A stretch of 64,000 bases of DNA from a virus, in IMG/VR virus record IMGVR_UViG_3300048597_000133, positions 1 through 64,000 of that record; one strand, 5' to 3'. The notes beneath the pieces were generated by a model. It saw only the letters and a program-made list of their open reading frames with translations, searched no databases and was not told the DNA's origin. This document shows, piece after piece, positions 1 through 64,000 of the stretch. Both the position numbers and the translations under genes were made by a program. The number at the start of each line of letters is the position of its first letter. Within the stretch, counting starts at the first letter, position 1.

Positions 1-3000
1 TTGCTTTCACCTAGAACAATATCAAATGACACTGCTAAGAACAAAAGAGAAGATAACTATCTTAAGTCCCCTACATTGCCGAAAGACATTAAGGGGGCTG
101 AGGTTGCTGTTACCTCTAGACCATTAGAAGGCAGTAAAAAAGATGAAGATAAAAAAGAAGAGAAGGCTTGGTATGAAGGCTTTTTTGAGGGATTAGCTCA
201 GATGGGTCGTGATATGACCAATACCATTAATAAAGCTGCTGACTATGTTGGGGACTTAATTGGAGACGCTGTAGGAGCTATTGGGTCTTTAATAACAGGA
301 GATTATACTCCTAATGTAAGCAAGGAGTTCGAGGAGGCCGCCAGACGTACATCTGCAAACATAGGCATACCCTATGAATATTTGATGGCCGTGATGGGGT
401 TTGAAACTGGTGGCACATTTAGCCCCTCAGAACGGAATATGGCAGGTAGTGGCGCCACTGGTTTGATACAGTTTATGCCTTCTACAGCTAGAGATATGTT
501 TGGTATAAGCACAGACCAAATGGCTTCTATGTCACAAATAGAGCAACTAGCCTACGTAGAAAAATACTACAAGAATGTATTAAATGGAAGACAGGCTTCT
601 ACCCTGACAGACGCTTATATGGTGGTTCTTTACCCTGCCGCTGTAGGAAAAGGAGATGACTATACTTTATTTCGGTCTGGTACTACTGCATATAGACAGA
701 ATGCAGGACTAGATGTAAATAAAGATGGTACGGTTACTGCCGGAGAAGCTACAGAGAAAGTTAAACAATATTTACCAAGGTCTGGTGATTCTAGAGATGC
801 CTCTAAGAACGGACCTAGTAAAAGTTATTCTCCTATGTCTGTCAATAAAGGTTCTTTTTTAGATGACTCTCCTAAAGGGTCTTATGACTACACTCTATCT
901 AGAAATGGTAAAACTAATGTAGAAATTCCAGCGCCTTTCAGTGGTGTTGTAATTAGTGCTCTACCTGAATCTAAATCGGGTGGGTATGGGGAGGACCTTC
1001 TTATATATGACCCATCTACTAATCTTACTCATCGTCTTGCCCATAACCAAAGACTTTTAGTGAAAGAAGGAGATACCTTTGTTAAGGGTCAGCCAATAGC
1101 AATACAAGGAAGTACTGGGCGCAGCAGGGGTACGCATATACATCATGAAGTACATAAGGGAAAAATTAATTATGCTCAGTCTGTGGGTGCAAGACCACAA
1201 ATGATCAGAGATAGGTCACAAAGTCGTCCTATTGTAGAAGGAATAATTAATGAATGGACCGCTGGGTCTAAAGGAGGAGAAACATCTAGTGCTAAGTCTG
1301 TAAATGATAAACCTAAAAGCTCAGTTCGTAAGGGTTGGATAACTCCTAAGTCAACTAGTGGCTCTGATTGGGTTAATAGCTCTCCTACTAGTCAGAATAA
1401 TATCCCCAGAAAAATAGCAATAGCCGCCGGTCATTGGAATACTTATGGACAAGGAGCACCAGGAGAGCAAGCCTGGAATAAACTAGTAGCTCAACAAATC
1501 GCCAATACTGGTAAAGAACGTGGCTTTGAAGTTGACTATATAGAGCCTTCGAAAACTAAAAAGATGAGTCTAGCTGAAGTAGGAGCCGCCTTAGCAGCTA
1601 AAGAGTCTCAAGGATATTACGCCGTAGAAATACACGCTGACAGAAATGATAGCGCTGGTAGGTCTGGCGTAATACCAGGTTCTAAAGTAGACGCTGCAGA
1701 TATAGCTCTAGCTAAAGTATTTGGTTCTTTCTCTAAAGGACAATACTCTGGCTATGCTTTACCACGTCAAGGGGTGTCTCTTCTAGAAACTGTCGGTATG
1801 GCTGAAGTTAATAAAATGACTCCAGAAGAACAAGCCAAATTTGCTAAAGAAATAGCTGCAATGTTCTTTGACGCTTTGGGGGGAGCTGAGCCTTCTGATA
1901 CTCCCTTTGACCCTAATCAGTTATATAGCGACGATGTTGACGTCTATAAATACCAAAGACCACAACCCCAACGCAGAAAAGTAACCTCTTGGGCAGAACG
2001 AGAACGTAAAGCTCAAGAACGTATCAAGTCTGGACAGGTTAAAAGAGAGTCCTACCAAACAAACCCCAGCCGTCTACGTAATAATGGCGTTAGACCTGGT
2101 GGTAGACCGGCAGAACCCAATCCACAAGCTAAAGCGGACTTGGATATAAAAGAGATAGTGGGTTCTAATTCAGGCTCTAAAGAGTTAGCTATAGTAGCTT
2201 CCGCTGGTGGGGACTTATCTGGATTAATACCTCAAGTCACGGCTTTAGCACCAGAACCTCAAGTTAAGAAACAGACTCCGGCGAAAGTAGAGCTTCCCAG
2301 AGAAATACGTTCTAGGGAAGTTGCTACAGTAGCAGAGACGAAAGGTAGTGTTGGTTATGGCGGCGGCTCAGGTGGGTCTAGCGGGGCGGGCGGTCAATCA
2401 TCCACAGTATCCGGTGTTGTATACACCCAAGGTGATTTAGGTTCCCCTGGAGCATTTCACTTTGATATTAAACGTGTAGAAGGCGGCTTCTATGAGCGTG
2501 AATATCTAGACAACTACGTCCAAGTAAATGGTAAACCCATTGGTTCAGGTATAACAGTTAAAGGAGGTGAGTATGGAGCACCCAGAAAATATGGCGGTCA
2601 TGGTGGTTGGGATTATGCTTTTGGTGATAAGAATGCAGGGCTGACTTTAGTCAACGGCGCCCGCTTAATTAGTGTCACACCAACCAAAACATATGGAGAT
2701 AAGTTAATCTTCCAATTACCTACTGGAGAACAGTTTGCTATTATCCATGGTCGTGCCACCCAATTAGGACGTGAGTCTGCCGGGGCAGAAGGAGCCTATG
2801 CAGCTAATGTCCCTAGTGATAGCGGCGGTGGGGGGCAAATGATGATGAGAAGGCAACCTCCTCGTAGAAAAGTAACCTCTTGGGCGGAACGAGAACGCCG
2901 AGCTCTAGAACGCATACAGTCTGGTCAAGTCGTAAGGCAATCTTACCGGACCAACTCTAGTCGTATAGCTAAGAATAACCAACAAAGCAAAGAAGATGAC

Positions 3001-3591
3001 AAAGGATTATTCGGGTTTATACAAATCCCAAATCTGTTTAAACGAAATACCACACTACCCTCTAAACCTACTAAGGATGATAATCAGTCCTTTACGCCAC
3101 CTGTAGGTAAGAAGCTTGATATTAAATCTCAAGTGTCTCAAAAAGACATTGTTAAAGCCATACCTACAAATAGTAAAGACTTAGATGTAGATGAAATACT
3201 AGACATCAAAGTCAGTCAGGCCTCTGACGCGGCAATGTCTAAAGCCGAAGTGGTAGGTAATGTTATAGCTGAAGCCGCCGCCAAAGCTCACAAACAGAAA
3301 AAAGAAAGCACCCCAGAAAAAGCAGTTAAGCATATTACTAATGTCCAACGTCCGGCAGAAACTGCACAAAATGTCAGCAGCTATACCCGGAGCATAACTA
3401 GTAACATAACCCGCGCTACCAAAACACAACCTGTCTATCAGCCAGACAACGACCAAAATGTCATTTTAGTTAGTTCTCAGATAGACCAGACTATGGTCAA
3501 TGTCAACGTTGCTAATAGTGGGATGAGGTCCCCATGCTCTGGACAGATGGCTGGTAAGAAACAAAGAGTACAAGGACCATGTGTTGCTTAA
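1..3591 (+). CDS. Large multi-domain peptidoglycan hydrolase, probably virion-associated (lysozyme/SLT-like, M23 peptidase, amidase_3-like, second M23-like domain); probably 5'-truncated by the window edge
   Basis: FETGGTF..SGATGLIQFMP (transglycosylase-like); GGYG..AHN..GSTGRSRGTHIHHE (M23); IAIAAGH..E..VEIHAD (amidase_3); HGGWDYA..YG..IIHG (M23-like). ORF is open from base 1. Confidence 0.8.
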   Translation: MLSPRTISNDTAKNKREDNYLKSPTLPKDIKGAEVAVTSRPLEGSKKDEDKKEEKAWYEGFFEGLAQMGRDMTNTINKAADYVGDLIGDAVGAIGSLITGDYTPNVSKEFEEAARRTSANIGIPYEYLMAVMGFETGGTFSPSERNMAGSGATGLIQFMPSTARDMFGISTDQMASMSQIEQLAYVEKYYKNVLNGRQASTLTDAYMVVLYPAAVGKGDDYTLFRSGTTAYRQNAGLDVNKDGTVTAGEATEKVKQYLPRSGDSRDASKNGPSKSYSPMSVNKGSFLDDSPKGSYDYTLSRNGKTNVEIPAPFSGVVISALPESKSGGYGEDLLIYDPSTNLTHRLAHNQRLLVKEGDTFVKGQPIAIQGSTGRSRGTHIHHEVHKGKINYAQSVGARPQMIRDRSQSRPIVEGIINEWTAGSKGGETSSAKSVNDKPKSSVRKGWITPKSTSGSDWVNSSPTSQNNIPRKIAIAAGHWNTYGQGAPGEQAWNKLVAQQIANTGKERGFEVDYIEPSKTKKMSLAEVGAALAAKESQGYYAVEIHADRNDSAGRSGVIPGSKVDAADIALAKVFGSFSKGQYSGYALPRQGVSLLETVGMAEVNKMTPEEQAKFAKEIAAMFFDALGGAEPSDTPFDPNQLYSDDVDVYKYQRPQPQRRKVTSWAERERKAQERIKSGQVKRESYQTNPSRLRNNGVRPGGRPAEPNPQAKADLDIKEIVGSNSGSKELAIVASAGGDLSGLIPQVTALAPEPQVKKQTPAKVELPREIRSREVATVAETKGSVGYGGGSGGSSGAGGQSSTVSGVVYTQGDLGSPGAFHFDIKRVEGGFYEREYLDNYVQVNGKPIGSGITVKGGEYGAPRKYGGHGGWDYAFGDKNAGLTLVNGARLISVTPTKTYGDKLIFQLPTGEQFAIIHGRATQLGRESAGAEGAYAANVPSDSGGGGQMMMRRQPPRRKVTSWAERERRALERIQSGQVVRQSYRTNSSRIAKNNQQSKEDDKGLFGFIQIPNLFKRNTTLPSKPTKDDNQSFTPPVGKKLDIKSQVSQKDIVKAIPTNSKDLDVDEILDIKVSQASDAAMSKAEVVGNVIAEAAAKAHKQKKESTPEKAVKHITNVQRPAETAQNVSSYTRSITSNITRATKTQPVYQPDNDQNVILVSSQIDQTMVNVNVANSGMRSPCSGQMAGKKQRVQGPCVA
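1963..2073 (+). repeat. Copy 1 of a 37-aa internal repeat (copy 2 at 2854-2964)
   Basis: QPQRRKVTSWAERERKAQERIKSGQVKRESYQTNPSR vs QPPRRKVTSWAERERRALERIQSGQVVRQSYRTNSSR; shared DNA core agaaaagtaacctcttgggc(a/g)gaacgagaacg. Confidence 0.95.
2854..2964 (+). repeat. Copy 2 of the 37-aa internal repeat
   Basis: See 1963-2073. Confidence 0.95.
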
Positions 3592-13254: not shown

Positions 13255-14372
13255 TCTAACTTCAGCATATGTTTAACTTCATCTTTGACATAATCCACAT
13301 ATCTAGGATGACATAGTTGTAAGTAAGGGCAGACTGACGTGACTTGTTTGCTTTTCCAGTCTCTTTTAATACAGGGTGTGCCGTACTCTGTGGGCATCTT
13401 AGTAGGCCAGCAGTTATTCTCATGGGCTAAATTAATAGCCTTCTGGATATCTTGGAAATGTGTAAAGGTGTCATATACGACCTTTAAGTCCACAGCGGCT
13501 ACCACTACCTCACCACTAGGTAAATGATTGATTGCTATGTAGTCAGGCGGCTTTCCTGTATCTTCGGTCCATAAGTAGGCGTACATATTTAGTTGACTGT
13601 GAAAAGCAACATCTAGACCAGAGGGTGTATCTTTACCAGTCTTATGGTCACTAATTACAGTGTGCCCATCTTTTGTTTTGTAACTGAAGTCTACGAACCA
13701 GGCCCATTCTTTATCAGTGTCCCAGGATATTTTCTTTTCTGATGTATATTCAATCCCTGTAATTTCTTCTACCCAGTCAGGGATATAGAAATTATAAAAG
13801 CAGGCTGCAGCTAAGCCGGCGGTATTACAAAGACTGATACGACGGAATTCTGGGTTAATCAAAGAGGCTAAATTGTCCAAAGCCATCTTAATCTCGTATA
13901 GCCCATGCCGTTCTATTTCGGCGCTCATTCTCTTAGGTGGGAACTTAGCCGGGTCTTTGGGCACTGACCCGTCAGCATTACGAATAGCATCTGTACCTTT
14001 ATAAACACTGCTGGCTCTATGAAGTAAATACCCGTAGACTTTAGCGTACTTAGTGAGGCTATCTACGTCTATGAACTGCAAGCCATCTAAGTCTTTAGTG
14101 TTCATATGGATAGACTCTGTGCTGAACCCACAGCTTTCTACTAACCACTCAGGGATTAACATCTCTAAGATGTCATCTTTAGCACCGCCAGTTTTAAGGA
14201 ATTCCTCAACACAGTTATGAGCTAAAGTCCCTTTCAAGAAGTAGTCTTCTAACGGTACGTAAAGCCCTTCAGGTTTATTGACATAGCGGTGGTAGAACTT
14301 AGCCGGGCACTCGGTAAAGGTAGAAAGTCTGCTGTAAGAAACTGTATTAGATAACTGTTTTGAGGAACTCAT
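13251..14372 (-). CDS. PD-(D/E)XK RecB-family exonuclease
   Basis: VSYSRL..CP, GTLAH, VD, ISDHKTG, QLNMYA, C-terminal Cys residues. Confidence 0.85.
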   Translation of the reverse strand: MSSSKQLSNTVSYSRLSTFTECPAKFYHRYVNKPEGLYVPLEDYFLKGTLAHNCVEEFLKTGGAKDDILEMLIPEWLVESCGFSTESIHMNTKDLDGLQFIDVDSLTKYAKVYGYLLHRASSVYKGTDAIRNADGSVPKDPAKFPPKRMSAEIERHGLYEIKMALDNLASLINPEFRRISLCNTAGLAAACFYNFYIPDWVEEITGIEYTSEKKISWDTDKEWAWFVDFSYKTKDGHTVISDHKTGKDTPSGLDVAFHSQLNMYAYLWTEDTGKPPDYIAINHLPSGEVVVAAVDLKVVYDTFTHFQDIQKAINLAHENNCWPTKMPTEYGTPCIKRDWKSKQVTSVCPYLQLCHPRYVDYVKDEVKHMLKLE

Positions 14373-14964
14373 TTGGTTGAGATATTCTTTTGAATTTTAG
14401 CTTAGGGTTTTCAATCCATTTTAACGTTATTAGGTCAGCTCTAACCAAACCACCGAATAGCACTCCCAAAGCATCGTACTCATGCTCCGTACCTCCTTTA
14501 AGGCGATTATTAAAATACTCCTTAGCGTATTCTTTAGTGCCTTTTAGATTTAAATGCTGTGACCATTCTTTAGCTCCGATGACTTCATAAGGGATTGATT
14601 GTTTATACAAAGCCATATGAACAGTCATCTCTGCTCGGAGTAAAGTACCGTAAGCAGACCTCCTACCCGGGTAAACTTGTTCAGTGAACACTGTAGTGGG
14701 TTTACCCTTGGCACAAGACGTTACAAAGGTCTCTAGTTGTATTAGTCGTTTGACTAACTGAGTAGAGCTAGAGCCGGATAGGAGGGTGGTGGTGTAGACG
14801 GTTAAATTTGGTATATCTAGCCAAGCCACCCCAGTATAACTAGAGCTTTGGTCTAACCCTAAGTAATAATTGCCTAGCGGCCTAGGTTTAGATTGGCGAG
14901 TGCTAGGTTTAGTGGACTTGGTGGATTTGCGCCGGGTTTTGGTTGGCGGTTTTGACAAAGTCAT
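14347..14964 (-). CDS. ruvC: RuvC-like Holliday junction resolvase
   Basis: YLGLDQSSSYTGVA, VFTE, HEYDALG. Confidence 0.75.
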   Translation of the reverse strand: MTLSKPPTKTRRKSTKSTKPSTRQSKPRPLGNYYLGLDQSSSYTGVAWLDIPNLTVYTTTLLSGSSSTQLVKRLIQLETFVTSCAKGKPTTVFTEQVYPGRRSAYGTLLRAEMTVHMALYKQSIPYEVIGAKEWSQHLNLKGTKEYAKEYFNNRLKGGTEHEYDALGVLFGGLVRADLITLKWIENPKLKFKRISQPNEFLKTVI

Positions 14965-40254: not shown

Positions 40255-43131
40255 GCTCCTTTAATCTCAGACCCTAAAGCCTCAAATTGTTCGGTTTGTA
40301 CCTGTTCCATTATCTGTTTAATAGACTCAGCTATCTCTAATGCTAGGACATCATGCTCGAAGACTAACTCTGTGTATAGCCCGTCGGCGCTCTTCTTGCT
40401 CTTGTCCCAGTCAATGGTAGACTTACCTGGAGCGTAGATTAAGATTTCCAATCGGTGTTACGCCCTACCCGATTCCGATAGGGCTCCTTAGCTTTCACTA
40501 AGGGTCAGACTATATCATCAGCATTATCATGCTGCAACCTGTTTCGAGGTCTCTTGACCCCTACTCCCTTGCGGGATAGTCGTTGGACGGTCAAAGAGTC
40601 CTACCTTGTAATACATACCATACAGCTTATTCTTACAGATAAATGATTCTACAAAAGAGCCGAACGCGCTAGCGCCTTTAGTCCCTATATATAGATAGTT
40701 ATAACTTTTACCACTTTTCTTGACGTCTTTCCGCATTGCAGGTCTGAAACTTAGCAGTGATTCAAACTTATCTATCAGATGCAAAGTCTCTTCATCATTT
40801 AGCATGTTGCAGTAAAGGTGCATAAAGTGTTTCTTTTTATGCCAACTACCGTCATCTAAGTACCAAATTATTAACTCGTTTATAGAGAGCCTATCTATAG
40901 CTTCTTTATAGGTTAAGTCAGCTAAGACATCAGCGTAGTAGAAAGGCGATGTCCTAAACGAATAAATAGGTTTATCTCCGTAAGAATCTGGATGTTGTTC
41001 ACTCACTCGTAACCTATCTTCGTATCCAACATATTTAGCCTTCCATTTTATATAGTCGGCGTCCGTACCACTAAACGTTATTTGATGATGTCTACAGCTC
41101 TTTTGTTTAGATATACACCCATCGCCTAATTTAGCTGTCAGATACAAGTTTATAGGAGTCATTTATAGTAGAGTAAGGTAAGGACTCTAAGCTTCGCTGC
41201 TGATTGCCCAATCTTATGTAATTATAAGCTCTAAGGGGTTCCCAGCAATTAAGGTTGTTTACCCACGACAAAATCTATCGTGCACCTGTCCGATAAGCTG
41301 AACTCTGTTATCATTGAATATAGGGTGGTTATCAATCCACTTCTGTATCCTCAACATTGACTCCTTCGTTTGTGAGCAGCTGAGGCTTTGAATGGCACAA
41401 TTAACAGCAGCGCGCACCGCAGAGTCGCCGTCCTTGCCGCCTGACCGCTCTTCGGACACCCACCTCCATCGTCCAGTCAAGGGCACAATACAAAACCCCC
41501 GTGCGGAGGCTAATGCCCCATAACTTTCAGCCCATTCATAATACCCGGCATAGGTCTTACGATGATTAGCCACCCAGGACTCTGCTACATCCAACTTCAC
41601 ATGGTTTCGTTCACTGATTGACTGACTAGTACTTAAGTACAACATCGCAAAATTGAGCGTCTTTGAGATGTCTCGTGGTTTACGCTTTTCTCCAGGCTGT
41701 ACAACGCGAACAATAGCGTCCCACTCTGACTCAGGCTTCCCTTCTATAAGATGAGGATGGGTGCAAGTGCACCCAGTTAATGTATGAAGGTCAGAGTAGG
41801 GGTCTGGGTATTCTGTCCCATCTGGTAACTTCTTTTTCTTGGGCAATAATTGAGCCTTAGTCATAGCAGGGTCTTTGCTTAATACCGTAGCTACGGCTAT
41901 TTCTTGCAGTATTGTTATCATTGAGTTCTTTATCTCAACTTCTTATGGTTTACTATCCCATAAGCTCAGACTATATCATCTTCCTGTACATACAGGAAGG
42001 AGGGCGCTCGTGGCTGCATTACTGTCTGTTCTAGACTCGGCAGCTAGTCGTTACACTTTCCTACTATCCCTAGTAGACTTAGCTCGGGATTATCCTTAAA
42101 TACTCAGAGGACGTTCCCCGAATTCACCCCCTTTGCTCCTAAACATTACTATTTAGGGGAGCCGGACTTACTACCTAGCAGAATATCTCTCTTTCTATGG
42201 AGAGCTGGCGCTGATAAATCACTATACAAATAGCTTATAAACTTCCTTCTGTTATCAGATACGCCTGATACGTATGCTGCATGTACATTTTCTTTTATAA
42301 GTCTATACCAACAATTAACGCCTTGTGATTGCATATAATCAAGCGCTTGGTCTATAAAAGATTTACTGCCTGAAAATATGTAAGTTGATGTTTTATGAAC
42401 TGTACCGTTCCCATCAAAGTACCCTCGGATAAAATCCCAGGTGAAGTTAAAATTTAACTTAAGGGTAAGGCTTTTTCTCGGTGTAATACCTAAAGAGATA
42501 AGGAAGTCTACAACCATCACATTAGAGAATCCTACGGCATATTCATATACGCCATATTTTTTATTCCAAGACCTGTTCACATTTACAGGTGCTTTTAAGA
42601 ATTCAATATACTTCTCTAAGTGTTCTGGGTCTTTATTTGTACAAATACGTACGCAGCTGGCTTTGCCTTTAATGTCACTAACACAACCGTCGGATGCTAT
42701 ATAACCCAACCAGTACTGAGTTTCAGGATTGGTTAAATCAGCAAATGGATTATGGTGAACTTTTCGTAGTCTATCTCCTGTAGAGATTAGAGGTATGTTA
42801 TTACGCAAAAGAATTCTCCTAACGGAAGTATTGTTAGCTAAACCTGTTTCTTTAGCTATCTCTACTGTGTTTAATCCTTGTTTGTATAACGATACAACTA
42901 ATTCTTCAGTTTCTTTAGAGCAACGCTTAGGCATAATTTCTACTGTAGTTAGTGTTTTTGACTCGAGTAATCTAAAGATACTATACAGCTCCCAGAGCCA
43001 TCACCGCAGGTAAAGCCATTACGTGGGTTGCTGACAAAAGATACAACTTCTTCCTCAGTCTGTGGTTTGTCTAAGGCTACAGCAGTTTGGTTGGTGCCGG
43101 GCCTAGTAGTTATTCTTCGTTTTCGTTTCAT
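40218..43131 (-). CDS. polA: Family A DNA polymerase, C-terminal part; exons 43131-42961, 41906-41277, 40448-40218 (343 aa spliced)
   Basis: Splicing restores motif A SLDYSS|QEIAV and motif C QVHD|EILI; motif B RDISKTLNFAMLY and RAAVNCAIQS lie in exon 2. Confidence 0.9.
40449..41276 (-). mobile_element. Group I intron 2 in polA motif C
   Basis: Exon ends in U; P1 CACGAU/GUCGUG; P10 AGAUUUU pairs with exon 3 GAAAUCU; AAUUGCUGGGAA, AAUCAGCAGC, CAACGACUA, GAUAUAGUC core elements; terminal G. Confidence 0.92.
40527..41162 (-). CDS. Intron-encoded LAGLIDADG homing endonuclease
   Basis: LTAKLGDGCI and IIWYLDDGS motifs; 3' end overlaps the intron core. Confidence 0.88.
   Translation of the reverse strand: MTPINLYLTAKLGDGCISKQKSCRHHQITFSGTDADYIKWKAKYVGYEDRLRVSEQHPDSYGDKPIYSFRTSPFYYADVLADLTYKEAIDRLSINELIIWYLDDGSWHKKKHFMHLYCNMLNDEETLHLIDKFESLLSFRPAMRKDVKKSGKSYNYLYIGTKGASAFGSFVESFICKNKLYGMYYKVGLFDRPTTIPQGSRGQETSKQVAA
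41907..42960 (-). mobile_element. Group I intron 1 in polA motif A
   Basis: Exon ends AGU; GAAUUCGGGGAA, AAUCCCGAGC, GUAACGACUA, GAUAUAGUCU core elements; ends ..AUACUG before CAA GAA ATA. Confidence 0.88.
42149..42934 (-). CDS. Intron-encoded LAGLIDADG homing endonuclease with N-terminal HTH
   Basis: YWLGYIASDGCV and FIRGYFDGNG motifs. Confidence 0.9.
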   Translation of the reverse strand: MPKRCSKETEELVVSLYKQGLNTVEIAKETGLANNTSVRRILLRNNIPLISTGDRLRKVHHNPFADLTNPETQYWLGYIASDGCVSDIKGKASCVRICTNKDPEHLEKYIEFLKAPVNVNRSWNKKYGVYEYAVGFSNVMVVDFLISLGITPRKSLTLKLNFNFTWDFIRGYFDGNGTVHKTSTYIFSGSKSFIDQALDYMQSQGVNCWYRLIKENVHAAYVSGVSDNRRKFISYLYSDLSAPALHRKRDILLGSKSGSPK

Positions 43132-50835: not shown

Positions 50836-51276
50836 CTACAGGTTTTCTAACTGTTCTAAATCGACTAAAGGATCATCAAAGCATGGGTCTGTTTTATAAA
50901 CTTCAAGGTGTAATAGAGATATAGGTCCGTAGCAGTATGGTTCGCAATGGACCACGGCCTCTTCAAATGACCAGGTGCCGGGTCTTTTAAACCTTTGGTC
51001 TGTGTAGAACACAGACATATCTTCATACTTTGACCGGACTGCATCTCCTCTTCCGTATGCCGCCCACATAGCAGCTCCTTCACGACAAGTAGGCCCTCCG
51101 CTAATCTTTAGTAGGTCTACTAAAAGCCGCTCTCTTTTATTTAATGGCTCCTCTGGGTCATCACAACACAACTGAGCCACGGCGGCGGCAAAAGACCGGT
51201 GGTATTGTGAGTGCGCCCCCGGGCGATGACTTAACCCCCACTTGAGCGCCTTATAGTAAGTTTTGATGATGTCCAT
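50836..51276 (-). CDS. Hypothetical protein
   Basis: Operon ORF. Confidence 0.55.
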   Translation of the reverse strand: MDIIKTYYKALKWGLSHRPGAHSQYHRSFAAAVAQLCCDDPEEPLNKRERLLVDLLKISGGPTCREGAAMWAAYGRGDAVRSKYEDMSVFYTDQRFKRPGTWSFEEAVVHCEPYCYGPISLLHLEVYKTDPCFDDPLVDLEQLENL

Positions 51277-51445
51277 TAAAGTACCTTCTTAAGGCTTGAG
51301 CTATACCGCTTATCTTATAATTCTGCTGGTATATTACCTTATCCACATTAATGAGCACGCCAAGATGCAGAAGTCTATTGCGGAGGATTACCTCTATCGG
51401 CATCAATAGCATGTCGTATTTTCTAAGGTTGGTTTTGCTGAGCAT
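51251..51445 (-). CDS. Small M-[LIV]-x-K type protein (MLSK)
   Basis: 64 aa with the shared N-terminal motif. Confidence 0.5.
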   Translation of the reverse strand: MLSKTNLRKYDMLLMPIEVILRNRLLHLGVLINVDKVIYQQNYKISGIAQALRRYFNGHHQNLL

Positions 51446-51474
51446 AAAATAAAAGCTCCTATGTAGATAGGAGC

Positions 51475-51570
51475 TTATACTGATTCTTCTAGAAAATGCA
51501 CAATCTTCTTATTTTCCACAATGGGAAATAGGTCATAAGTTTGGACTACTACTGTTTGGACACTAGCCAT
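51475..51570 (-). CDS. 31-aa peptide MASVQTVVVQTYDLFPIVENKKIVHFLEESV
   Basis: AGGAG Shine-Dalgarno 6 nt upstream; terminator-like hairpin AAGCTCCTA..TAGGAGCTTTT directly after the stop. Confidence 0.55.
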   Translation of the reverse strand: MASVQTVVVQTYDLFPIVENKKIVHFLEESV

Positions 51571-51632: not shown

Positions 51633-53909
51633 TTATACTGTGTAGTTAGAGACCAAATAACCTCTATGCGGCTCACTTCTTTGATACTCTTCAGCATGTA
51701 CGCGGTCTACGAAGAAATACCCGTCTGTGGCAAATAGGACTTTATCAGGGGACTGTTCTAGTTTTCTAAGTAGAGAATTATCCGCATGGTAGACACGATT
51801 AGTGGACAAGTCCCATGGCTCACCGTCTATATAACAGAGCTCTTCTTCCTTATTCAGATAATAATCCCCATATTTAGGATGCTTAAAAGTTACAACTTCA
51901 GAATCGTCTTTACCTACTGCTTGAGTGAGTAACACGTATTCAGTGAGGGTTGGTGTTAGTTGGCAGGATAATACTTTTTGGGTTGGCATAGAAGTGATTA
52001 AGTGGAGGTCAAAAGTGTAATTATAAGTCACTCTTCATTCTCGGTAGCCGTTGTAAACTTCTAGCCACAGCATCTCCCTCCACCCTTCTGGCAGCTTGTC
52101 TACGACGTGGTCTTCCTCTCTTTCTGTTTGAGAGTAATACTCTGGGGGATTGCCCTCGTCGTCGTAGTCTTGTAGTTGGAAAGGTATGTCGTAGTCTTCA
52201 ATTGTGGCGCGAACTACTAAAGCAGTGTACATTGTCACCCCTATTCGCAGTAAGTCTTGAAGACTATGTAGTTCAACCATAGTGCCAGTCTTTGGTGGGT
52301 TGGTTACAGCCGGTTTGTTGCAATGCAGGGGGTGGTTGGAGTATTTGATTAGGAATTGCATTGGTCAGGGTTGAGGAATATAAGAGTAGGTATTTGGTCG
52401 TCTTCACCTCGCTTATACCCAATAAAGTCTCCTTGATTGCCGTCTATATAGGGCATAATCCACTCAAAGAAGTCTTTGATAAAGCCGGAGTATTTGGTAT
52501 CCCCTTTGCCTAATAAAGAGTAGCAATACTCATCTTTAGTGAGCAGACGGCAAGCGGTGTTAGGCGTGTAATAGCTGGCGGAGTAAAACAGGTATCTCCA
52601 CGACTGCTGTTCCTCTGTTAGCGCTTCTAAGTCAGCGTCTTCATGGTCACACATAACCTTAAGGACGTTAATAACGTCTTCAGGCACGGTGTCTTTGAGG
52701 TCTACATTAATATAGATTTCTGTGTAGTAGCCCATTTAGTAGTTCAGTTAAGTATGTTTGGTGTCTTTCTCAGTACACGCGAGATAGACAAGCCTAATCG
52801 GTTAGGAATATCTTTTAGCCCGGCGATGTAGGAATAGGGATAATTCAGTCTGAGGAGAACGTTTTCTATCTCTTTATCCGCTGCCGCAGAGATAATGTGG
52901 TCTGACCTCACGCCTATCAGTTTTCTTTTTAGGATCATGGTTAGTCTGACGCGTTTAATATATTTGCCATATGCCAAGGTAAAAGCCTTCCTAATCTATT
53001 AGGACTGTTAAGTCTTAATGCAATAGTAGGGTGATAAAGAGGTGCGAACCTCGCACATATGTCATCTATCCTTTTTTCAATCCTTGATGCAACAAGCATA
53101 TCTGACTTGACTTCTATCAGTGTTCTTTTTATGACCATGGGTGCAAGTCTGCTCATTGGTTAATAACTTGTTGTACTCGTAACCACTCAGCCAGGTCGCA
53201 GTCGTCTCCTAAGTGCCGGAATGCAGAACCAGCATCCCTATCCTCACTATCTCGCTTTATTGCTTTGTTGAGTTCCTTGCTGATTAGGTCTTGAGTGCGT
53301 TTAGGTAGAGTAGACCATTGCTGGATAAGTAAGTCGCAGAAATCTGAGACAGCGTAAGAGCGGCGCCCGAGCCAAAGCGTTAGTAGCTGGGGGTCATTCA
53401 TTCTCGTCCTCCTCATCTTGATTGTCGTCTAAGATATTCTTCAGGCATTCCTTGCCTAGGATCTCTAGAGAGGACCAAAACAGTTGGTTGAGATAGTCGT
53501 CACACATGCGCGCTGCTATGATGTCTAGGTGCTCTTGGGTGATTAAACTAGTTTGCTCATCTGTAAGGTCCAGAGCACATTGAACGTCATTTGGTGTGAT
53601 GTAAGTAATAGCTGATTTCATTTGAGTTCCTCTTTAATACCAACTAAGTTCTACGGAAGGGTCTACACAGACATGGATGTCTACGTGTTCCTTAATCACA
53701 GCTAAGACGTCCTTCTTAACATGGCGGCTCTTGTGACGCTTAACTGCAGTTAATAGTTTTTCCAGCTCCTCTACGTAATCTACTTCGAGTATGTCGGAGT
53801 TCTTCACAGCCTCTTCCCAGACTTCAGGTGTGGTTTGCTGCTTTAAGTCCTCCAGTTGTTGTTTTAGGTTCTTTAGCTCTTGTTGGAATTGAATTTGGTC
53901 AGTAGTCAT
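51633..53909 (-). CDS. Cluster of small hypothetical genes (51633-52031, 52035-52361, 52349-52735, 52744-52938, 52941-53138, 53153-53416, 53394-53621, 53634-53909)
   Basis: Tightly packed ORFs; 52744 and 52941 are paralogs (M.[IL]KR.LI.V.SD..PNRLG..NILN). Confidence 0.6.
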
Positions 53910-54584: not shown

Positions 54585-54625
54585 AAATAGTTGTACACGT
54601 TTTTCTGTTTTGTGTACAACTATTT
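54585..54625. promoter_or_regulatory. Perfect 14-bp inverted repeat (operator or hairpin)
   Basis: aaatagttgtacac-N13-gtgtacaactattt, 20 nt upstream of the 54565 start. Confidence 0.6.
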
Positions 54626-55649
54626 CAGTTTAGCATATACTATATTAAGTGTATGGGAGCTTTCTAACAGTTCTAATTATGCTCGAATAATAATGCGGCT
54701 CTCCTAAGTGATAAAGACCGACTTTAAGCATAACCACATTATTCACGGTACGTCCAATAGTCATAGACACACTACTCCTCACGCTTTGTTTACTGGTCTG
54801 GTATTTGGTGAGCAGACAAGCGCAAAAGTGCTAAGTAGACTTATCTGTGTAACTAACAGACTATGGGTCTTAGTCAGCATATATCTTAAATAATTGTTCT
54901 AAATAAGCCAGCCGTATTTTCTGGTGACCCATAGGAATAAAGTCTACTGGGACGGCAGATAAAGATATGCCAGCGCTGGCGCTAAGGATTACATACGCCC
55001 TAAGGAGCTTCTTCTTTTCAGAGGGCTGACCAGTATGAGTTTTATCTAACATGTCTTCTAATAGAGTGGTGTAGCACTGAGTGATAAGGCGATATGTTGG
55101 GGATAGCGCCCCGCTTTACACCAAGTACGATGTAGAGGTATACGTTAAGGTTATTGATATAGCGCTGCTCTATGACCTTATAGGTGCGGCTTTTAACCAC
55201 CGCAGTTTTCTTACGGTGTGTAGTCTTAGTTATCACGGCAATGATAGTGAGTCAACGAAGTTTTTTATCATTCGGGTCATTACCTCCAGGTAGATAGGTG
55301 GGTTTTCTACTGCTATCTCGCATCGTCCGTTATCGTGGACACGAACTAAGAATCCGCATAACAGGTCTAAGTTTAAATAAGCATCGTACAGAGCATCGTG
55401 CCCATTGCGGGTAACGGGCAGGTGGGTTTTGGTTAGCATGGTTGGGTAACTAATCTAATCCTATAGTCTTATAAAGCCCGCCGATGATAAACCTAAAGCG
55501 GGCTGGTGGTCGGATCGACGCATAGAACCTAACTTGCTGTTTGTATGGTTGAGTTAAGTATTTAACTGACACGCCTACTTCAGAGATTGCTGTGTCAATA
55601 TGCTTGAAGACATTATTGCGCCGAGGTCGGCATTGGCAGTGCTTCTTTG

Positions 55650-55735
55650 TTACCATCTGCTTAAGACCCTATAAGTACTGCCACTAATAGATCTAAAATA
55701 AGCGGGCGGTCGTATGCAATGCTTTTTGTTATCAT
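55650..55735 (-). pseudogene. Internally deleted, frameshifted paralog of 55450-55656
   Basis: Adding one A gives MITKKHC-IRPPAYFRSI.. vs neighbour MVTKKHC..IRPPARFRFI. Confidence 0.65.
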
Positions 55736-55908
55736 TCCTCTAATATCCTGCGAACTGCCATAGAATTACGTTAATTGAGCGGAATTGATTGGGCGCCTCA
55801 ATCTGAGGATAGAAATACAGTCTGTATCCCGTTGGGTGATATAAGTAACCAACCTGCATGCCTATGTCGTATACGGTTTTCGTGACTGTTCTTGCGGCGG
55901 GGTTGTCA

Positions 55909-56631
55909 CTATTTCGGCGGTACTTCTTTGCTATCATTTGTCTTTTTATCTATATGTGCCCGAAGCTTGAATAAGATGTCATTAATTTTGAAGTAATAAT
56001 GTAAGCCTCTGCTTCGACCTCTCTTAGGAATTAAATATGACCAACCTATTTCTACCCAGTTGTCATCTACAACATCTTCCACGTTAAAGTTATGGGCTGG
56101 GTGGATGTAGTAGATTTTTCCCTGTAAGTTCACAGCGACTTTTACGTCTATTAAGTCGCCAAGGTTATTCTTAATGCCTAACAGCATTGACCGATGACGG
56201 AAATACTCCCCCAAACTTTTAGCGGCTGCAAATCTATCTTCTGGCGACTCTAGCTCGACGGCACTTAATGCCTTAAGCATATCTAAGGTGACAGGGAGTA
56301 GCCGGTCATAGACTGTGATTAGCTCCGTAGTTGGTGACTGTAAGTCAAACTTGTACATACTGTGGTTACCTACAGGTTTCTCTGTTGTATAACCAGGGTT
56401 TTCTATTAAATCCACTAGATAGATACTGAGTCTGGCTTGGTCTTCGGTGGGATTGTATTTAGGTAGTTGTTCGCGTTTGAACTTGTCTACGGCGGCGACT
56501 ATCTCTTTCTTAGTGCCTCCCTTAATATAGTCTTCGTATCGTTCTATAGTTGAGTATTTAGCTTCTGAGTCGTCTAGATTGTAGAAGCTTATGGTTATTT
56601 TGTAGAGCCGTTTGGTTTTTTGTTTGGTCAT
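55909..56631 (-). CDS. Hypothetical protein (240 aa) inside the array
   Basis: Long ORF, no recognised motif. Confidence 0.65.
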   Translation of the reverse strand: MTKQKTKRLYKITISFYNLDDSEAKYSTIERYEDYIKGGTKKEIVAAVDKFKREQLPKYNPTEDQARLSIYLVDLIENPGYTTEKPVGNHSMYKFDLQSPTTELITVYDRLLPVTLDMLKALSAVELESPEDRFAAAKSLGEYFRHRSMLLGIKNNLGDLIDVKVAVNLQGKIYYIHPAHNFNVEDVVDDNWVEIGWSYLIPKRGRSRGLHYYFKINDILFKLRAHIDKKTNDSKEVPPK

Positions 56632-58389
56632 TTCTTTAGTTAGCAGATAGTTGAGTTATTAGTAGTCTGCATATATACCGCAAGACGACTAAGCCTACCG
56701 TTTGGTTCATACACTCTCTGTAGTAGGTCACTTTTATAAGTTCACCTTCAATATAGGAGCTCAATCTCTCCACTACGACGTTGCAATAGAAACCCCTTCT
56801 AAGATTGTATGTGGGTTTAGGAATCATTTCTTTAATGGTCCATAACGCACTATATGAAGTTTAAGCGCCCAACCAGCCGGGCAGATTAGATTGGAGTATG
56901 AGCTTAAACCATATTGCCAATAGAATAGTGGCTGGTCACGTAAAGAGGTATATAGTCTATCTCTAGTGACACCGTAATATACCCATTTAAAGTCGTGAGT
57001 GTGCTTAGATACCATGTAAAACCCGCCGCCTTACTATAGTGTTTACAGTGTCGTACTTTTTGGTGCCGTCTATAGCTACGAAACTATAATAAGGGTCAGC
57101 TCTAAGCGTATAGGGCCCCCTAAGCGGACAGATTTTATCTGCGAAGACTGCCGGTAATAACAGGACCTTAGTGGTCCGGCGTTTTACACTTGGTGGTTTG
57201 GCTATCATATCTTATGCTGTTTTAACAGGGAAGGTACATATTCGCTAACTACGTCGCTCATAATGCGGAAGTAGCGCGGCGATTTAGCTGATACTGAGAC
57301 CTCGTACCAAGTCGCTTCACGGTTTCTAGTTATAGTCTTCACATATCCTGTGTACATAGCCAAGTTCACGAATGTGAGTAGCAGCTCTTTGCGTATTACA
57401 CGTGCTTGGCGTGGTTTAGCCAGCATATGTGATGCCCTTAATATAGAGGCAAAGAGGAGTACGGATACTTATGTGAAACCAAGTTAGCCCGGTGTCATAG
57501 GTTATTTCTTCAATGAACCCTGTAGATTTAGATAAGAGTACATAAGCTGAACGGATATCTTTCTGCTTCCTATTGACTTTAGTGTTGTATTTAGTCAGCA
57601 TAAAACCTCCATCTTAAATACATACACTTGTAGGCTGTATCACTCATGACATAAAAGCAGTAAGGTATGATTAATACCAACTGGTGCCATAGCATTTCAT
57701 CACCATTAACCATTTCTGTCACTATATATTTATAGTATTCAGCTAAGACCATAGAAGTCTTACTTAGTTCTTCGGGTTTTATGTTATATCGGCCATGTGA
57801 TTTTGTTAACATATTCATTTTTAACAAGTTGGTCTACAATACTTCCTATAACAAAGATATGGGACGGTGTGTTTATAGGAACATCGTCCCAATGTAATCC
57901 TTTAGTCACGTACTGTATAAGACCACTCCTATTTGCCAGTAACAAATAAGGATTCTTAGGTTTTGCTGATTTACTTAGTCTCATATCTACAAAGGAGGCT
58001 TTGGTCAACATGATAGCTTCTCGATATATCGTTCGAATACACCCCATAAGGCAATGATATAAGAAGGTGTACTTATAGGCACTTGATGCCATATCTCCTG
58101 CCTTCTGACATAGCATACACGTCTGCTAGCTTCTGCCAGTAGTACCCAGGGCTTAGGTCTTTTTCCATACGCCATAGTCATAGGATTAAGACTAGTCTTA
58201 GTTAGCATAGGCCGTATTTATATAATTCGAATATATCGTCCAAGACAATAATGTGAAGAGGTGTTCTTAAGTTAACCCCTAGCCATTCCTCTTGTTTTCT
58301 GACATGGGTTAGAGGACTAGTGCTTGAGGCTATTAACGTATACACTTTAGACCTTTTATCTAGGTCTGAATCGATAAGGCTAGTTTTAG

Positions 58390-58578
58390 TCAGCATGAGA
58401 AACTTCTAGCGTATTGTTCGAATGCACTGTCCAACGCAATAATATAAGAGGGCGTATCTATAGTCACCTAGTGCCACCCTTCTTGCTTTCTAACCTGCAT
58501 TAAACGAGTAGCATTCCGCACTATCATAGAAGATTTTTTATGTTGCCGTGTATTTACAAATTTAGTCTTGGTCAATAT
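58390..58578 (-). pseudogene. Pseudogene of the MLTK family
   Basis: ATA in place of ATG, then LTKT..VRKQEGWH*VTIDTPSYIIAL; in-frame TAG at 58468-58470 where paralog 58005 has WHQVPISTPSYIIAL. Confidence 0.8.
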
Positions 58579-59230: not shown

Positions 59231-60421
59231 TCACTCGTAATCTCTGAACGTTACGCCGATGGGAAAACGTGGTAGCCCGTCGTTTGTATAGCCAAAGTGC
59301 TTGATGGTTAAGGGCGTCATTTGCGGCGGCTTGTTATTGTACAAAGCCTCTTTCTGGGCAACAGTGCCTTGCATCTTTGCTTTGAAGGCTCCGTCTTTAC
59401 TGCCAGCGATACAGACTGCAATCAGATCCTCTACGCCCCGCTGCCCCAACTCAAAGTCAAGAAAGGGGAACTCATTAGAGTCGTACTCTTTAACTTTCAA
59501 CAGGTTGGAGCTGCGCTGACCTTGGTCATAGCTGCCGTCTAGCAGGCGCACCATCACACCTTCATAGCCTTCTTGAACGTAATGGTCGTGGAGTTTTAAT
59601 ACTTCTTCTTTGTTAATGCAAAGATGCCCGGGGACTACGTGAGAATATAACCAAGAATTAGTAGCGAACAGCGAACTAATAGTCTCCCACCTTACTACTT
59701 GTGTGGAGTCAGAAACAACGTCATAGACCATATACCGTAAGGTTAGAGATTCATCTCGGTATTTCTTAACGCAGGCTACTATCTCTTGGAAGGTGAGTCC
59801 GTGTGCGTAAATCTCACCGTCTAAGATAATGGGTTTTGTAAGACTATCTTCTAGTTCCTTCGTTATGTGGGGTAAAGTGCTATACGTCTTGCCAGTGCGG
59901 GATAACATAGTGACTTTTTCCCCATCAAAGATACAAAGGCAACGGACTCCGTCGTATTTGGGCATTACAAGGCAACCATAGTTGACTTTCTTCCAGTTTA
60001 CTGACTTGGCCAGCATTGGTTTTACATTGCCCTGGGCGTCAGTCATATAGGTAGGTAAAGCCTCTTCTAAAGCGTTCTTAAGCGTTGAATAGAGTGTGTT
60101 GTTGTATGAGAAAGCGGAGGCTGTTGTTCCTTGTACCCACTCAATACCTAAATCTTCTATAGTCTTGTAGCCTTGGTCTTTCTTTTTCTTCCAGTCGGAC
60201 TCAGCCTGGCTCTTGGCTTGCTCTAAGGGAGTCGTTTGATTCGCGCGTCCCAAGTTTTTGCCTTCTTGAACATGTTCGATGTTCTCTAAGGGTTTGTCGG
60301 TGCCGTACTGTCCAGAGGTTTTGGTAATGATAGCTGTGCCGTCGGCTTGGGCAGTAACATCAATCTCCCAGAATTGTATCGCGGTCGTGCGGGTGCGTTT
60401 GTAGAGCAGGGGCAGCTTCAT
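59231..60421 (-). CDS. lig: ATP-dependent DNA ligase
   Basis: PMLA, PKYDGVR, LDGEIY, YDV, EGVMVR, LLKVK, PRFP. Confidence 0.95.
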   Translation of the reverse strand: MKLPLLYKRTRTTAIQFWEIDVTAQADGTAIITKTSGQYGTDKPLENIEHVQEGKNLGRANQTTPLEQAKSQAESDWKKKKDQGYKTIEDLGIEWVQGTTASAFSYNNTLYSTLKNALEEALPTYMTDAQGNVKPMLAKSVNWKKVNYGCLVMPKYDGVRCLCIFDGEKVTMLSRTGKTYSTLPHITKELEDSLTKPIILDGEIYAHGLTFQEIVACVKKYRDESLTLRYMVYDVVSDSTQVVRWETISSLFATNSWLYSHVVPGHLCINKEEVLKLHDHYVQEGYEGVMVRLLDGSYDQGQRSSNLLKVKEYDSNEFPFLDFELGQRGVEDLIAVCIAGSKDGAFKAKMQGTVAQKEALYNNKPPQMTPLTIKHFGYTNDGLPRFPIGVTFRDYE

Positions 60422-61083: not shown

Positions 61084-61197
61084 ATAGTAGACGTCGATTA
61101 GGTCGTTGTCGGGGAAGGTTAAGGGGGTTTGAAACTGTTGGCATAAATCTGTAGAAAATAGTAGAATCTAGTAGTAATGGTTGCACAGCGTAATTCC

Positions 61198-62406
61198 ATG
61201 AGACAAGTTGAACGAACATACATTAAGCTATCGAGTGCCTATTTCTCCACAGTGGATGATTTATCGTGGAGGGCAAAGAATTTATACAACTTAGCCAACT
61301 ACCACATCAGACAAGAGTTCTTCAAGTCTGGTGGATATATTGGATTCTTTGACCTTTATCACCTCCTAAAGGGGACAGAGGCATACTTGGACTTGCCTAC
61401 AAAGGTGTCCAAACAGATAGTTAAACGTGTTGCTCAGACCTGGAAAGGTTATTTAGCCGCACACAAAGACTGGAAGCGTAATCCACATAAGTACCTAGGA
61501 GAGCCAAAGATTCCTGGTTACTTGGATAAGGAAAAAGGACGTTATTTAATCCCGTATCCTATAGACGCAATCAGTCGTCCTGCGCTTAGAGAAGGATTCA
61601 TTAAACCGTCCATGACGAAGATGCGTATCCCAACTCAAGTCAAAGACGTTAAGGTCTGCGAGGTGCGCTTTGTGCCTAAAACAGATTGCTACGTTATGGA
61701 AGTTGTGTACGAGGTAGAAGGCAAGGAACTTACCGAGGATAATGGTGTAGTTGCTGGATTAGACCTAGGGCTTAACAACCTTTGTACAGTCGCTACCAAT
61801 CGACTCGATGTTGCCCCTCTTATTGTTAACGGAAGGGGACTAAAGTCTATAAACCAGTTCTACAACAAGACTAAAGCTGACATCCAGTCTAAGTTAAGCG
61901 GGAAGCGTAAATCCTCTGCAAGGTTGCGCCTATTAACTCAGAAGCGGAATCAGCGTGTAGATTCTGCTCTGCATCAAGCTAGTAGAAAGGTAATTGACTA
62001 CTGTGTCGAAAACCTAGTAACGACGCTTGTAGTGGGCTACAACAGCTTGTGGAAACAAGAGATTAACATCGGTAAGCGTAACAACCAGCAGTTTACTCAA
62101 ATCCCCCACCGTAAACTGATAGACCAAATCACATATAAGGCGGCGCTTGTAGGTATCAAGGTAATAGAGACAGAGGAAAGCTACACCAGCAAATGCTCTG
62201 CTTATGACCTAGAACCTGTCAAGAAGCATAAGTCCTATGTAGGTCGTAGGGTTAAGCGTGGACTGTTTAAGACTGCCACTGGATTGTTGGTTAATGCCGA
62301 CGTTAATGGAGCATTAAATTGCATCTTAAAAGTATTCAGCAACGAGGTTATCTTCGAGTTGATAGGGGCTCAGCCGTTGCGCCCTAGAGTGGTTAATCCA
62401 ATCTAA
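61198..62406 (+). CDS. tnpB: TnpB RNA-guided nuclease (IS200/IS605 superfamily), rearranged RuvC-II type; no tnpA present
   Basis: MRQVER..AKNLYN, AGLDLGLNNL (RuvC-I), LVVGYN..WKQ, EESYTSKC, NADVNGA (RuvC-III). Confidence 0.92.
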   Translation: MRQVERTYIKLSSAYFSTVDDLSWRAKNLYNLANYHIRQEFFKSGGYIGFFDLYHLLKGTEAYLDLPTKVSKQIVKRVAQTWKGYLAAHKDWKRNPHKYLGEPKIPGYLDKEKGRYLIPYPIDAISRPALREGFIKPSMTKMRIPTQVKDVKVCEVRFVPKTDCYVMEVVYEVEGKELTEDNGVVAGLDLGLNNLCTVATNRLDVAPLIVNGRGLKSINQFYNKTKADIQSKLSGKRKSSARLRLLTQKRNQRVDSALHQASRKVIDYCVENLVTTLVVGYNSLWKQEINIGKRNNQQFTQIPHRKLIDQITYKAALVGIKVIETEESYTSKCSAYDLEPVKKHKSYVGRRVKRGLFKTATGLLVNADVNGALNCILKVFSNEVIFELIGAQPLRPRVVNPI

Positions 62407-62525: not shown

Positions 62526-64000
62526 TCTCCAAGGAATTAGAGTAGGAGTAGTTAGGTGTTGTTTAGCTAGCATAATTTTTAAGTGCGGCGCGGGCAACTG
62601 TTTCAGCAAAACCTTTAGAGTTACCAACATGGCTAGTGTAGAGCCAATAGCCTTTAAGTAAGAGTCCCTCCTCATGTGAAAACTTCTTAACTTCGCTACA
62701 CATACGCTGAGACAAAGTGTGATGCTTATTATCGTTACACCAGTTAGATAGCAGTGAGTAGAATTCCCTCAGCTTTAATTCTTTCAGTTGAGCGCCGGCT
62801 AACTTACGGCACTTGGCTTTGTCAAAAATCATCTTTTGTTTCTAATCCTGTTGGCTACAATATGTACAGCAAAGCAATAGTTAAAGTGCCTTGTGTCCGG
62901 GTCATACTTAGGATACACGTCATACTCTGACCTAATATCATTGCGTAGTTTAAAAGCCAAGTCGAAGGTAGTCATTCTACTAAAGGGCGACCTTTTCCTG
63001 CTGATGGTTTTCTTTTTAGTTAGCATCGGCCCAGATACTGTATTAAGGTGTAGTGCATCTTATTGAGAGCTGGTAGATTAGACCTATATAGCGACTCTCG
63101 GAACACATTACGCCTGGAGATGTGGGACTTTAAGTTAAACTTCAGACCGGCTGGAGCCAAACCACTATTAGGCTTCTTTAGCATAAACTGTCATATCGTT
63201 ATGATTTATATAGTTCAGGTATTCGCCTACTTCTACGTTTATATAGGTGATGTTAAACCTGCTGTCCCTTTTCATGACAGCAGCAAGTATCACGGTATAT
63301 AACTCAAGGTGCAGTTTCTGTGATACATAGCCGGGTCTACAGAGCTCATCGGATAAATTAAGTTTAGATATCATACGTGTAGTATAAGCAGACCCCGACT
63401 CGGGCAACCATCAACGTATAAACTGCTCTCATCTTTAATATGTACGGGTCAGGGAGGCATTCTTGTAGGTCTGACAGTGTATTACATACGTCGGAGCAGC
63501 AGGTAGTAGCGCCGGCCTTCACTGTGTTAGTCTTTATTAACATACTTTGGTAGTGTAAAGCGTTGTAGGTCCACCGCTAGTGATATTCGCCAGTTTACTT
63601 TAAATGAGTGCCGATACATAACTCTATATTTAAGGGTGTTTAATGTCTGCTCAAGCACACCATAGCTACAAACTGCTCTTTTATCTTTTAGGTGCGCTTT
63701 GTTAATCATTAAATCCCCTTAAATACTCATGTAATGTAAGACCTAATAATCTATGAGCTACTATTGGAGTTTTAAATAGGAACCTTTCGCACCACAATGG
63801 ACTAGCTATTCCTTCTAATACTCGGTGTAGTTTGCCATAACAAAGAAAGTTCTTTTTGCTTCTTGACTGTCTCTTTCCTAGCATACTAATAGGTAGTTAC
63901 AATGACGCCAGCGCAGGCCCAAGACAATACTGTCAGCAGAGCAACTTGCAATTTGATAGGTAGACGGTAATGATTGACCCAGTATAAGGCAATAACGCCG
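62526..64000 (-). repeat. Array 2 of small M-[LIV]-x-K genes, continuing beyond the window
   Basis: Starts 63884 MLGK, 63709 MINK, 63543 MLIK (59 aa), 63374 MISK, 63184 MLKK (54 aa), 63026 MLTK, 62832 MIFDK, 62573 MLAK (cut by the IS end); each overlaps the previous stop by 4-17 nt. Confidence 0.8.

Follow-up and report, generated by a model that had tools for sequence, protein, structure and literature searches.

We analyzed the first 64,000 nucleotides (64 kb, hereafter the window) of a 97,522-bp virus contig from IMG/VR (IMGVR_UViG_3300048597_000133; CheckV completeness 56%), nearly all of whose genes, called with a simple in-house caller, are carried by the minus strand. Between positions 54645 and 58578 the window contains an array of very small genes arranged head to tail, whose predicted products share an N-terminal motif, M-[LIV]-x-K (hereafter the tag), on bodies that are mutually unalike. 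The lineage was sampled by two genomes, the second being a 205,544-bp IMG/VR record (G001, 91% complete; hereafter the relative) that was found through a capsid-region protein 85% identical between the two. We consider the array to belong to a family of accessory micro-proteins that evolves by birth and death and whose members have an N-terminal handle in common, a view that we hold with about even confidence and for which the evidence is set out below.

Within the array, 16 intact minus-strand open reading frames (ORFs) of 33-75 amino acids (aa), located at 54779-58396, start with M-[LIV]-x-K, 15 of them with ATG and one with GTG (Table 1). Counted together with a pseudogene at one end and a truncated copy or possible tail at the other, they make about 18 units, the number given in a first-pass annotation made from the letters alone. 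The pseudogenised first unit now starts with Ile (I-L-T-K) and has an in-frame stop after 36 codons; it resembles the gene at 58202-58396 (BLASTP E = 1e-4), and 15 of 25 residues of its tail match the gene at 58005-58208 in a three-frame translation. It is followed by six adjacent intact paralogs, which form subfamily F1 and overlap one another by 7, 7, 29, 11, and 11 nucleotides (nt). An iterative hidden Markov model (HMM) search without the first 8 residues returned exactly these six genes, and M1, L2, K4, W40, and P48 were invariant in their alignment. The weak core sequence that had been described for a subset of the proteins was found in these six genes only (W40 and P48) and did not extend to the whole set. 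Three tagged singletons come next, with overlaps of 4, 11, and 4 nt, and no paralog of them was detectable among the members. The array is then split by an untagged 240-aa orphan gene, which lies outside the family and showed no Pfam match, no PHROG match, and no homolog in the relative. Beyond it are the two paralogs of subfamily F2 (BLASTP E = 4e-6) and four further tagged units, the last of which is a truncated copy. An untagged GTG ORF in another frame follows and is possibly the frameshifted tail of that copy, while a search for similarity between it and the family members found none. Thirteen of 16 junctions overlap in the main array, in agreement with the earlier statement that most units overlap the upstream stop; taken over all junctions, the statement applies to about half only. 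Repeats, promoters, and terminators were present inside the array at chance level only, and Rfam and tRNA scans gave no match within the arrays. An inverted repeat with perfect 14-nt arms and a 13-nt loop was observed at 54585-54625, in the gap that follows the last array unit and precedes a 193-aa gene.

The main array is the largest of five arrays on the contig, which comprise ~44 tagged ORFs and ~8.3 kb in total, corresponding to ~8.5% of the contig. In comparison, the relative has ~60 tagged ORFs (6% of its genome), all located at 151-193 kb and sharing the strand of its other genes. The window itself contains ~26 tagged ORFs, compared to the count of about 30 given in the first-pass annotation. 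Other tagged units in the window include a second array of six, which runs on to 66586 past the window end, and three outlying units, two of which are mutual paralogs (BLASTP E = 9e-8). At the third, a 10-bp hairpin with a T-rich run (51453-51476, minus strand) ends 7 nt before the ATG at 51445, and there is therefore no room for a ribosome-binding site.

Enrichment of the tag was counted on ORFs of 40-110 aa in both phages, with the motif allowed to begin at the first Met or shortly past it. It was present in 88 of 103 small array ORFs, compared to 4 of 341 (1.2%) elsewhere (Fisher P = 2e-71), which bears out the expected difference from other gene starts. Coverage of the minus strand by ORFs of at least 45 aa reached 69-100% in the arrays; it was 8-10% for Markov resamples, and the plus strand had 0-19%. 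Since this tiling is far above chance, selection maintains the reading frames, and the tiled character of the family is supported. At the nucleotide level, the contig has 8 copies of the sequence ATGCTRACTAA on its minus strand and 0 on its plus strand; allowing at most one mismatch, the window has 10 matches, where 3.8 were expected.

Across 104 members, the consensus start reads M-[L 71%, I 21%, V 8%]-[T 56%, S 14%, N 8%]-K-[Q/R/T/S]-[N/T/K/S]-[L/T/A/V]-[K/R], followed by a basic head. Lys and Arg constitute 20-25% of residues 1-15, while acidic residues make up 2-3% of residues 1-10. At position 2, six codons are used for Leu, three for Ile, and four for Val; Thr is written with four codons and Lys with both. 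In tagged array ORFs, codon 4 specified Lys in 88 cases and Asn in 0, although AAY would equally keep an overlapping TAA. Successive units form 102 junctions, of which 16 have an 11-nt overlap, a geometry that forces NNT-AAR, and 7 have a 7-nt overlap; at the remaining 79 (~80%), the upstream stop is clear of codons 2-4 and Lys4 is unforced. Among coupled non-array genes of the phage, whose starts overlap the upstream gene, only 1 of 31 carries the motif, and hence the motif is not a general need of coupling. Because synonymous codons vary, Lys4 is mostly unforced, and Lys is used to the exclusion of Asn, codon usage indicates that the tag is kept at the protein level, as a peptide. The first-pass annotation had made its case depend on a motif conserved beyond the constraint of overlapping stops and starts, and the free junctions together with the Lys:Asn ratio provide this. 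The tag was not enriched within large proteins. A 205-aa protein at 14347-14964 on the minus strand starts with M-T-L-S-K-P-P-T-K-T-R-R-K, which resembles the tag but has one residue more (13.4 bits); it is the sole larger protein so starting. A 16-residue tag profile gave no match in five cyanobacterial genomes, for which purpose the profile is too short.

The same codons also carry a second signal. An out-of-frame stop at nt 9-11 was present in 56 of 104 members, compared to 32 ± 4.6 expected from synonymous usage, and stops in both other frames were present in 41, compared to 18 expected. ACT accounts for 59% of Thr codons at codon 3 and 30% in the bodies, and AGY supplies 12 of the 15 Ser codons at that position, compared to 44% in the bodies. 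Since the tag codons are biased toward out-of-frame stops, the start module, judged by its codons, doubles as a stop/start connector. An alternative is that this is its principal role: the 12 bases ATG-NTR-ANT-AAR would mainly be a genetic junction, in which ribosomes terminate inside the next start whatever the upstream frame and reinitiate, and the peptide M-[LIV]-[TSN]-K would be a by-product. The residues at positions 2-4 are indeed the translation of those bases, the out-of-frame stops and the favored ACT and AGY codons are as this would require, 23 of 102 junctions really use the hidden stops, and Shine-Dalgarno-like sites are rare in the phage (10% of other genes and 25% of tagged members; the upstream regions of non-array genes are A-rich and G-poor). 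However, the strict preference for Lys over Asn is left unaccounted for, the stop at nt 9-11 is missing from 46% of members and that at nt 5-7 from 39%, and the latter was not enriched at all (63 vs 57). Positions 5-8 and the acid-poor head play no role at a junction, and 30 of 31 other overlapping genes manage without the module. We regard a mainly genetic role as unlikely. Two other ideas on the start region were rejected: a promoter built on the -35-like TTGACT has no -10 box downstream, and a fusion of units by frameshifting needs a geometry that is present at only 16 of 102 junctions.

The predicted proteins have a median length of 64 aa (5th-95th percentile, 48-79 aa) and a mean net charge of +5, 85% of them being positive. 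Arg, Ile, Tyr, Leu, His, and Cys are abundant in them, and Gly, Glu, Ala, and Asp are scarce. Detectable similarity was confined to neighbors, namely F1, F2, several pairs, and a probable three-gene block in the relative. With the tag removed, an HMM of F1 and F2 placed no other member above shuffled decoys, and comparison of F1 with F2 by hhalign without the tag gave P = 0.011 and a probability of 4%. AlphaFold models had a predicted local distance difference test (pLDDT) score of 46 for F1 and 60.5 for F2, the latter arranged as helix, hairpin, helix, with a disordered stretch at residues 1-9. Foldseek searches of PDB and BFVD returned nothing below E = 0.7, and ESM Atlas, whose own model had a pLDDT of 0.53, gave no usable match. 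The suggestion that members might share a common fold was not supported by these analyses, as whole-set HMMs with decoys gave no signal either. A Pro-capped C-terminal helix that seemed by eye to be shared was not significant (25 vs 19.6 ± 3.8), and the CsrA/RsmA RNA-binding proteins, considered for their size, M-L start, and Pro-capped helix, were rejected since no CsrA match was obtained in Pfam, PDB sequences, or Foldseek.

Library searches were similarly empty. Pfam and PHROGs, each searched with 44 members, gave one chance-level match per library (E = 0.002-0.006), and sequence-profile searches of PDB gave nothing below E = 1. A profile of the core subfamily recovered only the window's own proteins from 5.8 billion clustered proteins, and an F2 profile had zero matches among 1.84 billion representatives. 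The family was first put forward as an undescribed system, and on the basis of these sequence searches it is new, lineage-restricted, and very fast-evolving.

Comparison of the two phages showed how quickly the arrays change. The flanking anchor genes are collinear and 55-90% identical, while the array ORFs between them showed no similarity across the phages except for one 34-residue match and subfamily F2, the only subfamily with recognizable relatives in the second phage (four genes, G001 186152-186911). Kept anchors with unrelated contents between them are in accordance with the hypervariability proposed earlier. Within a phage, adjacent genes are paralogous, and a three-gene block has probably been duplicated in the relative, as two of the three gene pairs match clearly. 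From these sequence relationships, it is well supported that the arrays grow by tandem duplication of single genes, which diverge fast and lose copies by decay. What has been kept in more than 100 copies is the tag, a basic stretch of 10-15 N-terminal residues with few acidic ones, the size, and the positive net charge, and the view that purifying selection acts only on tag, size, and charge is likewise well supported. Gene starts that serve as universal stop/start connectors would allow new units to be added by duplication without loss of expression.

Taken together, the head-to-tail chains of minus-strand genes, with their frequent start/stop overlaps, would encode basic proteins of ~64 residues, and selection would bear on their shared handle and general properties, not on any single fold. 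The tag is therefore probably the point at which every member contacts the same partner. A short conserved N-terminus on hypervariable bodies is usually a trafficking or processing signal. The RxLR effectors of oomycetes and the PEXEL effectors of Plasmodium are examples, having a short N-terminal trafficking motif, hypervariable bodies, and clustered genes under birth-and-death evolution; the likeness is an analogy only, as the biology is unrelated and there is no homology. In phages, the closest precedent is the one named by the first-pass annotation, the internal proteins (Ip) of T-even phages, which are small, mutually non-homologous proteins having only a short N-terminal leader in common, and whose ip genes lie in variable hot-spots, so that related phages carry different sets (PMC12373910, PMC7697877). 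In T4 the head protease cuts off this leader of ~10 residues (PMC7697877). The array proteins resemble Ip1, Ip2, Ip3, and the polymorphic ip loci in their non-homologous bodies, in sharing the leader only, and in occupying a variable locus. Our preferred, though tentative, mechanism by this analogy is that the handle would be a sorting signal loading the proteins into the virion for co-injection, like the T-even leader. In its most specific form, the octapeptide would be a new, uncleaved sorting signal of a cyanobacterial jumbo phage, loading 45-60 basic micro-proteins for co-injection as an effector or DNA-coating library, which we think rather improbable as a whole.

There are also clear differences. 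The T4 leader is M-K-T-Y-Q-E-F-I-A-E, it is cleaved after Glu, and it is present on larger cargo such as Alt as well, whereas the array tag is M-[LIV]-[TSN]-K-polar-polar-[LTAV]-[KR], shows no cleavage motif, and is present on no large cargo. In contrast to T-even Ip, the array proteins are all ~64 aa and trace to tandem duplication. Several further observations weigh against our reading. No conserved Glu/Asp column was found in the first 24 positions and no other conserved candidate cleavage site in the first 20 residues, and none of the large proteins that were checked for a tag start carries it. No HK97-type S78 prohead protease was found with Pfam models in either genome; Peptidase_S77, the T4-type model in Pfam, also had no match in either genome, but the control genomes gave none either. 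There are 45-60 genes per genome here, compared to 3 to about 10 Ip genes in T-even phages. Structure prediction was poor. In composition the proteins lie closer to a random translation of their DNA (distance 0.049) than to the large proteins of the phage (0.065), and their codon-position signal is weak (G at position 1 = 0.23 vs 0.32), two features that also fit weakly constrained proteins. The likeness to Ip cargo is the leading explanation but is unproven, as the leader sequence and cleavage motif do not correspond and there is no large tagged protein.

That composition, together with low codon scores, the lack of orthology between the relatives, and the presence of decayed copies, might suggest that most of the units are nearly neutral filler, either decaying duplicates or proto-genes, kept open only for uninterrupted translation of a long operon through to its downstream genes. 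Neutral drift should scatter stops and starts, contrary to the tiling observed, and it does not lead one to expect the narrow range of sizes, the persistent positive charge, or a peptide-level tag in more than 100 copies; we regard this explanation as very unlikely. Somewhat more credible, if still doubtful, is that the proteins are not packaged at all: they would act early or in an accessory capacity, in host takeover or counter-defence, with a basic N-terminal arm contacting nucleic acid or the ribosome and the tag as part of the binding surface. Such a role would suit the charge of +5 and the Lys- and Arg-rich, nearly acid-free N-terminus, and the arrays lie among genes for DNA ligase, kinase/RNA ligase, phosphoesterase, and TnpB, not among structural genes. 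It would also suit the N-terminus of cyanobacterial ribosomal protein uL16 (M-L-S-P-R-R-T-K-F-R-K-Q in an Anabaenopsis gene), which in a post hoc comparison scored 4.3 bits on the tag matrix, compared to a maximum of 0.8 among 308 sampled host ORFs of at least 120 aa. This likeness, however, is limited to ~11 residues and breaks the invariant Lys4, no member matched any nucleic-acid-binding fold or family, and the keeping of 45-60 diverged copies would not be explained. A degradation or adaptor signal is a further possibility for the handle, to which we assign little probability. A library of precursors of ribosomally synthesized and post-translationally modified peptides (RiPP) was rejected, since neither a long leader nor a modifying enzyme was seen.

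The surroundings of the arrays provide some information on the phage and its host (Table 1). The contig had no nucleotide match among GenBank phages, none of which is close. A DNA ligase query against IMG/VR gave zero relatives, a search of IMG/VR with two-start DNA patterns gave G001 and three chance matches only, metagenome scans with a conserved flanking protein gave no match, and a screen of 401 cyanobacterial genomes found no prophage relative. The best relatives of the TnpB in the window (50-77%) are from filamentous cyanobacteria (Anabaenopsis, Dolichospermum, Microcoleus, and Hormoscilla), which weakly suggests such a host; a 96%-identical fragment of the gene is present in the relative (G001 190140-190553). 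The kinase/RNA-ligase and metallophosphoesterase genes that adjoin an array may form an RNA-repair module. While the DNA ligase near the main array is uninterrupted, that of the relative (G001 151499-153766) matches in two pieces ~1 kb apart within a single 759-aa frame, which looks like an intein-type insertion. A full-length group I intron (Rfam RF00028, 59.4 bits) was found at 41942-42194 on the minus strand, far from the arrays. The relative has giant ORFs of 6114 aa and 5274 aa, and the 5′-open 1196-aa ORF of the window (1-3591) may belong to a similar giant gene.

Table 1. Tagged units of the arrays and neighboring genes; positions are those of the contig, of which the window is the first 64 kb.
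Feature	Position	Strand	Remarks
Pseudogenised first unit, subfamily F1	58390-58578	-	
Subfamily F1, six intact paralogs	57205-58396	-	61-75 aa; HMM, alignment
F1 member	58202-58396	-	
F1 member	58005-58208	-	
F1 member	57784-58011	-	
F1 member	57591-57812	-	
F1 member	57416-57601	-	
F1 member	57205-57426	-	
Tagged singleton	57005-57208	-	63-67 aa for the three singletons
Tagged singleton	56824-57015	-	
Tagged singleton	56636-56827	-	
Orphan gene	55909-56631	-	
Subfamily F2 member	55740-55937	-	HMM, alignment, BLASTP
Subfamily F2 member	55450-55656	-	HMM, alignment, BLASTP
Tagged unit	55233-55439	-	
Tagged unit	55042-55236	-	GTG start
Tagged unit	54870-55052	-	
Last tagged unit	54779-54880	-	33 aa
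Untagged GTG ORF	54645-54782	-	45 aa
Second window array	62829-63884	-	
Outlying tagged unit	51251-51445	-	
Outlying tagged unit (paralog pair)	52744-52938	-	
Outlying tagged unit (paralog pair)	52941-53138	-	
ATP-dependent DNA ligase	59231-60421		396 aa
TnpB (IS605 OrfB)	61177-62406	+	between arrays
Second TnpB (IS605 OrfB)	67027-68334	-	between arrays, past window end
DUF6745 protein	past window end		
Kinase with T4-type RNA ligase (AAA_33 with RNA_lig_T4_1) and metallophosphoesterase	73171-75221		

Should the tag prove to be a signal for sorting or recognition, the family would add an independent, second example of the T4 principle, by which one leader serves many unrelated cargoes, in a very different phage and several times larger, and it would offer a short portable tag for cyanophage work. 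If the octapeptide loads the capsid, the injected library would be several times the T-even Ip set. The start region is dual-coded, reading as the peptide tag in its own frame and carrying stop codons in both remaining frames, and the family that carries it is invisible to every protein library searched. Regardless of function, these arrays are a clear natural case of extreme birth-and-death evolution, in which 4-8 residues, size, and charge are what survives.

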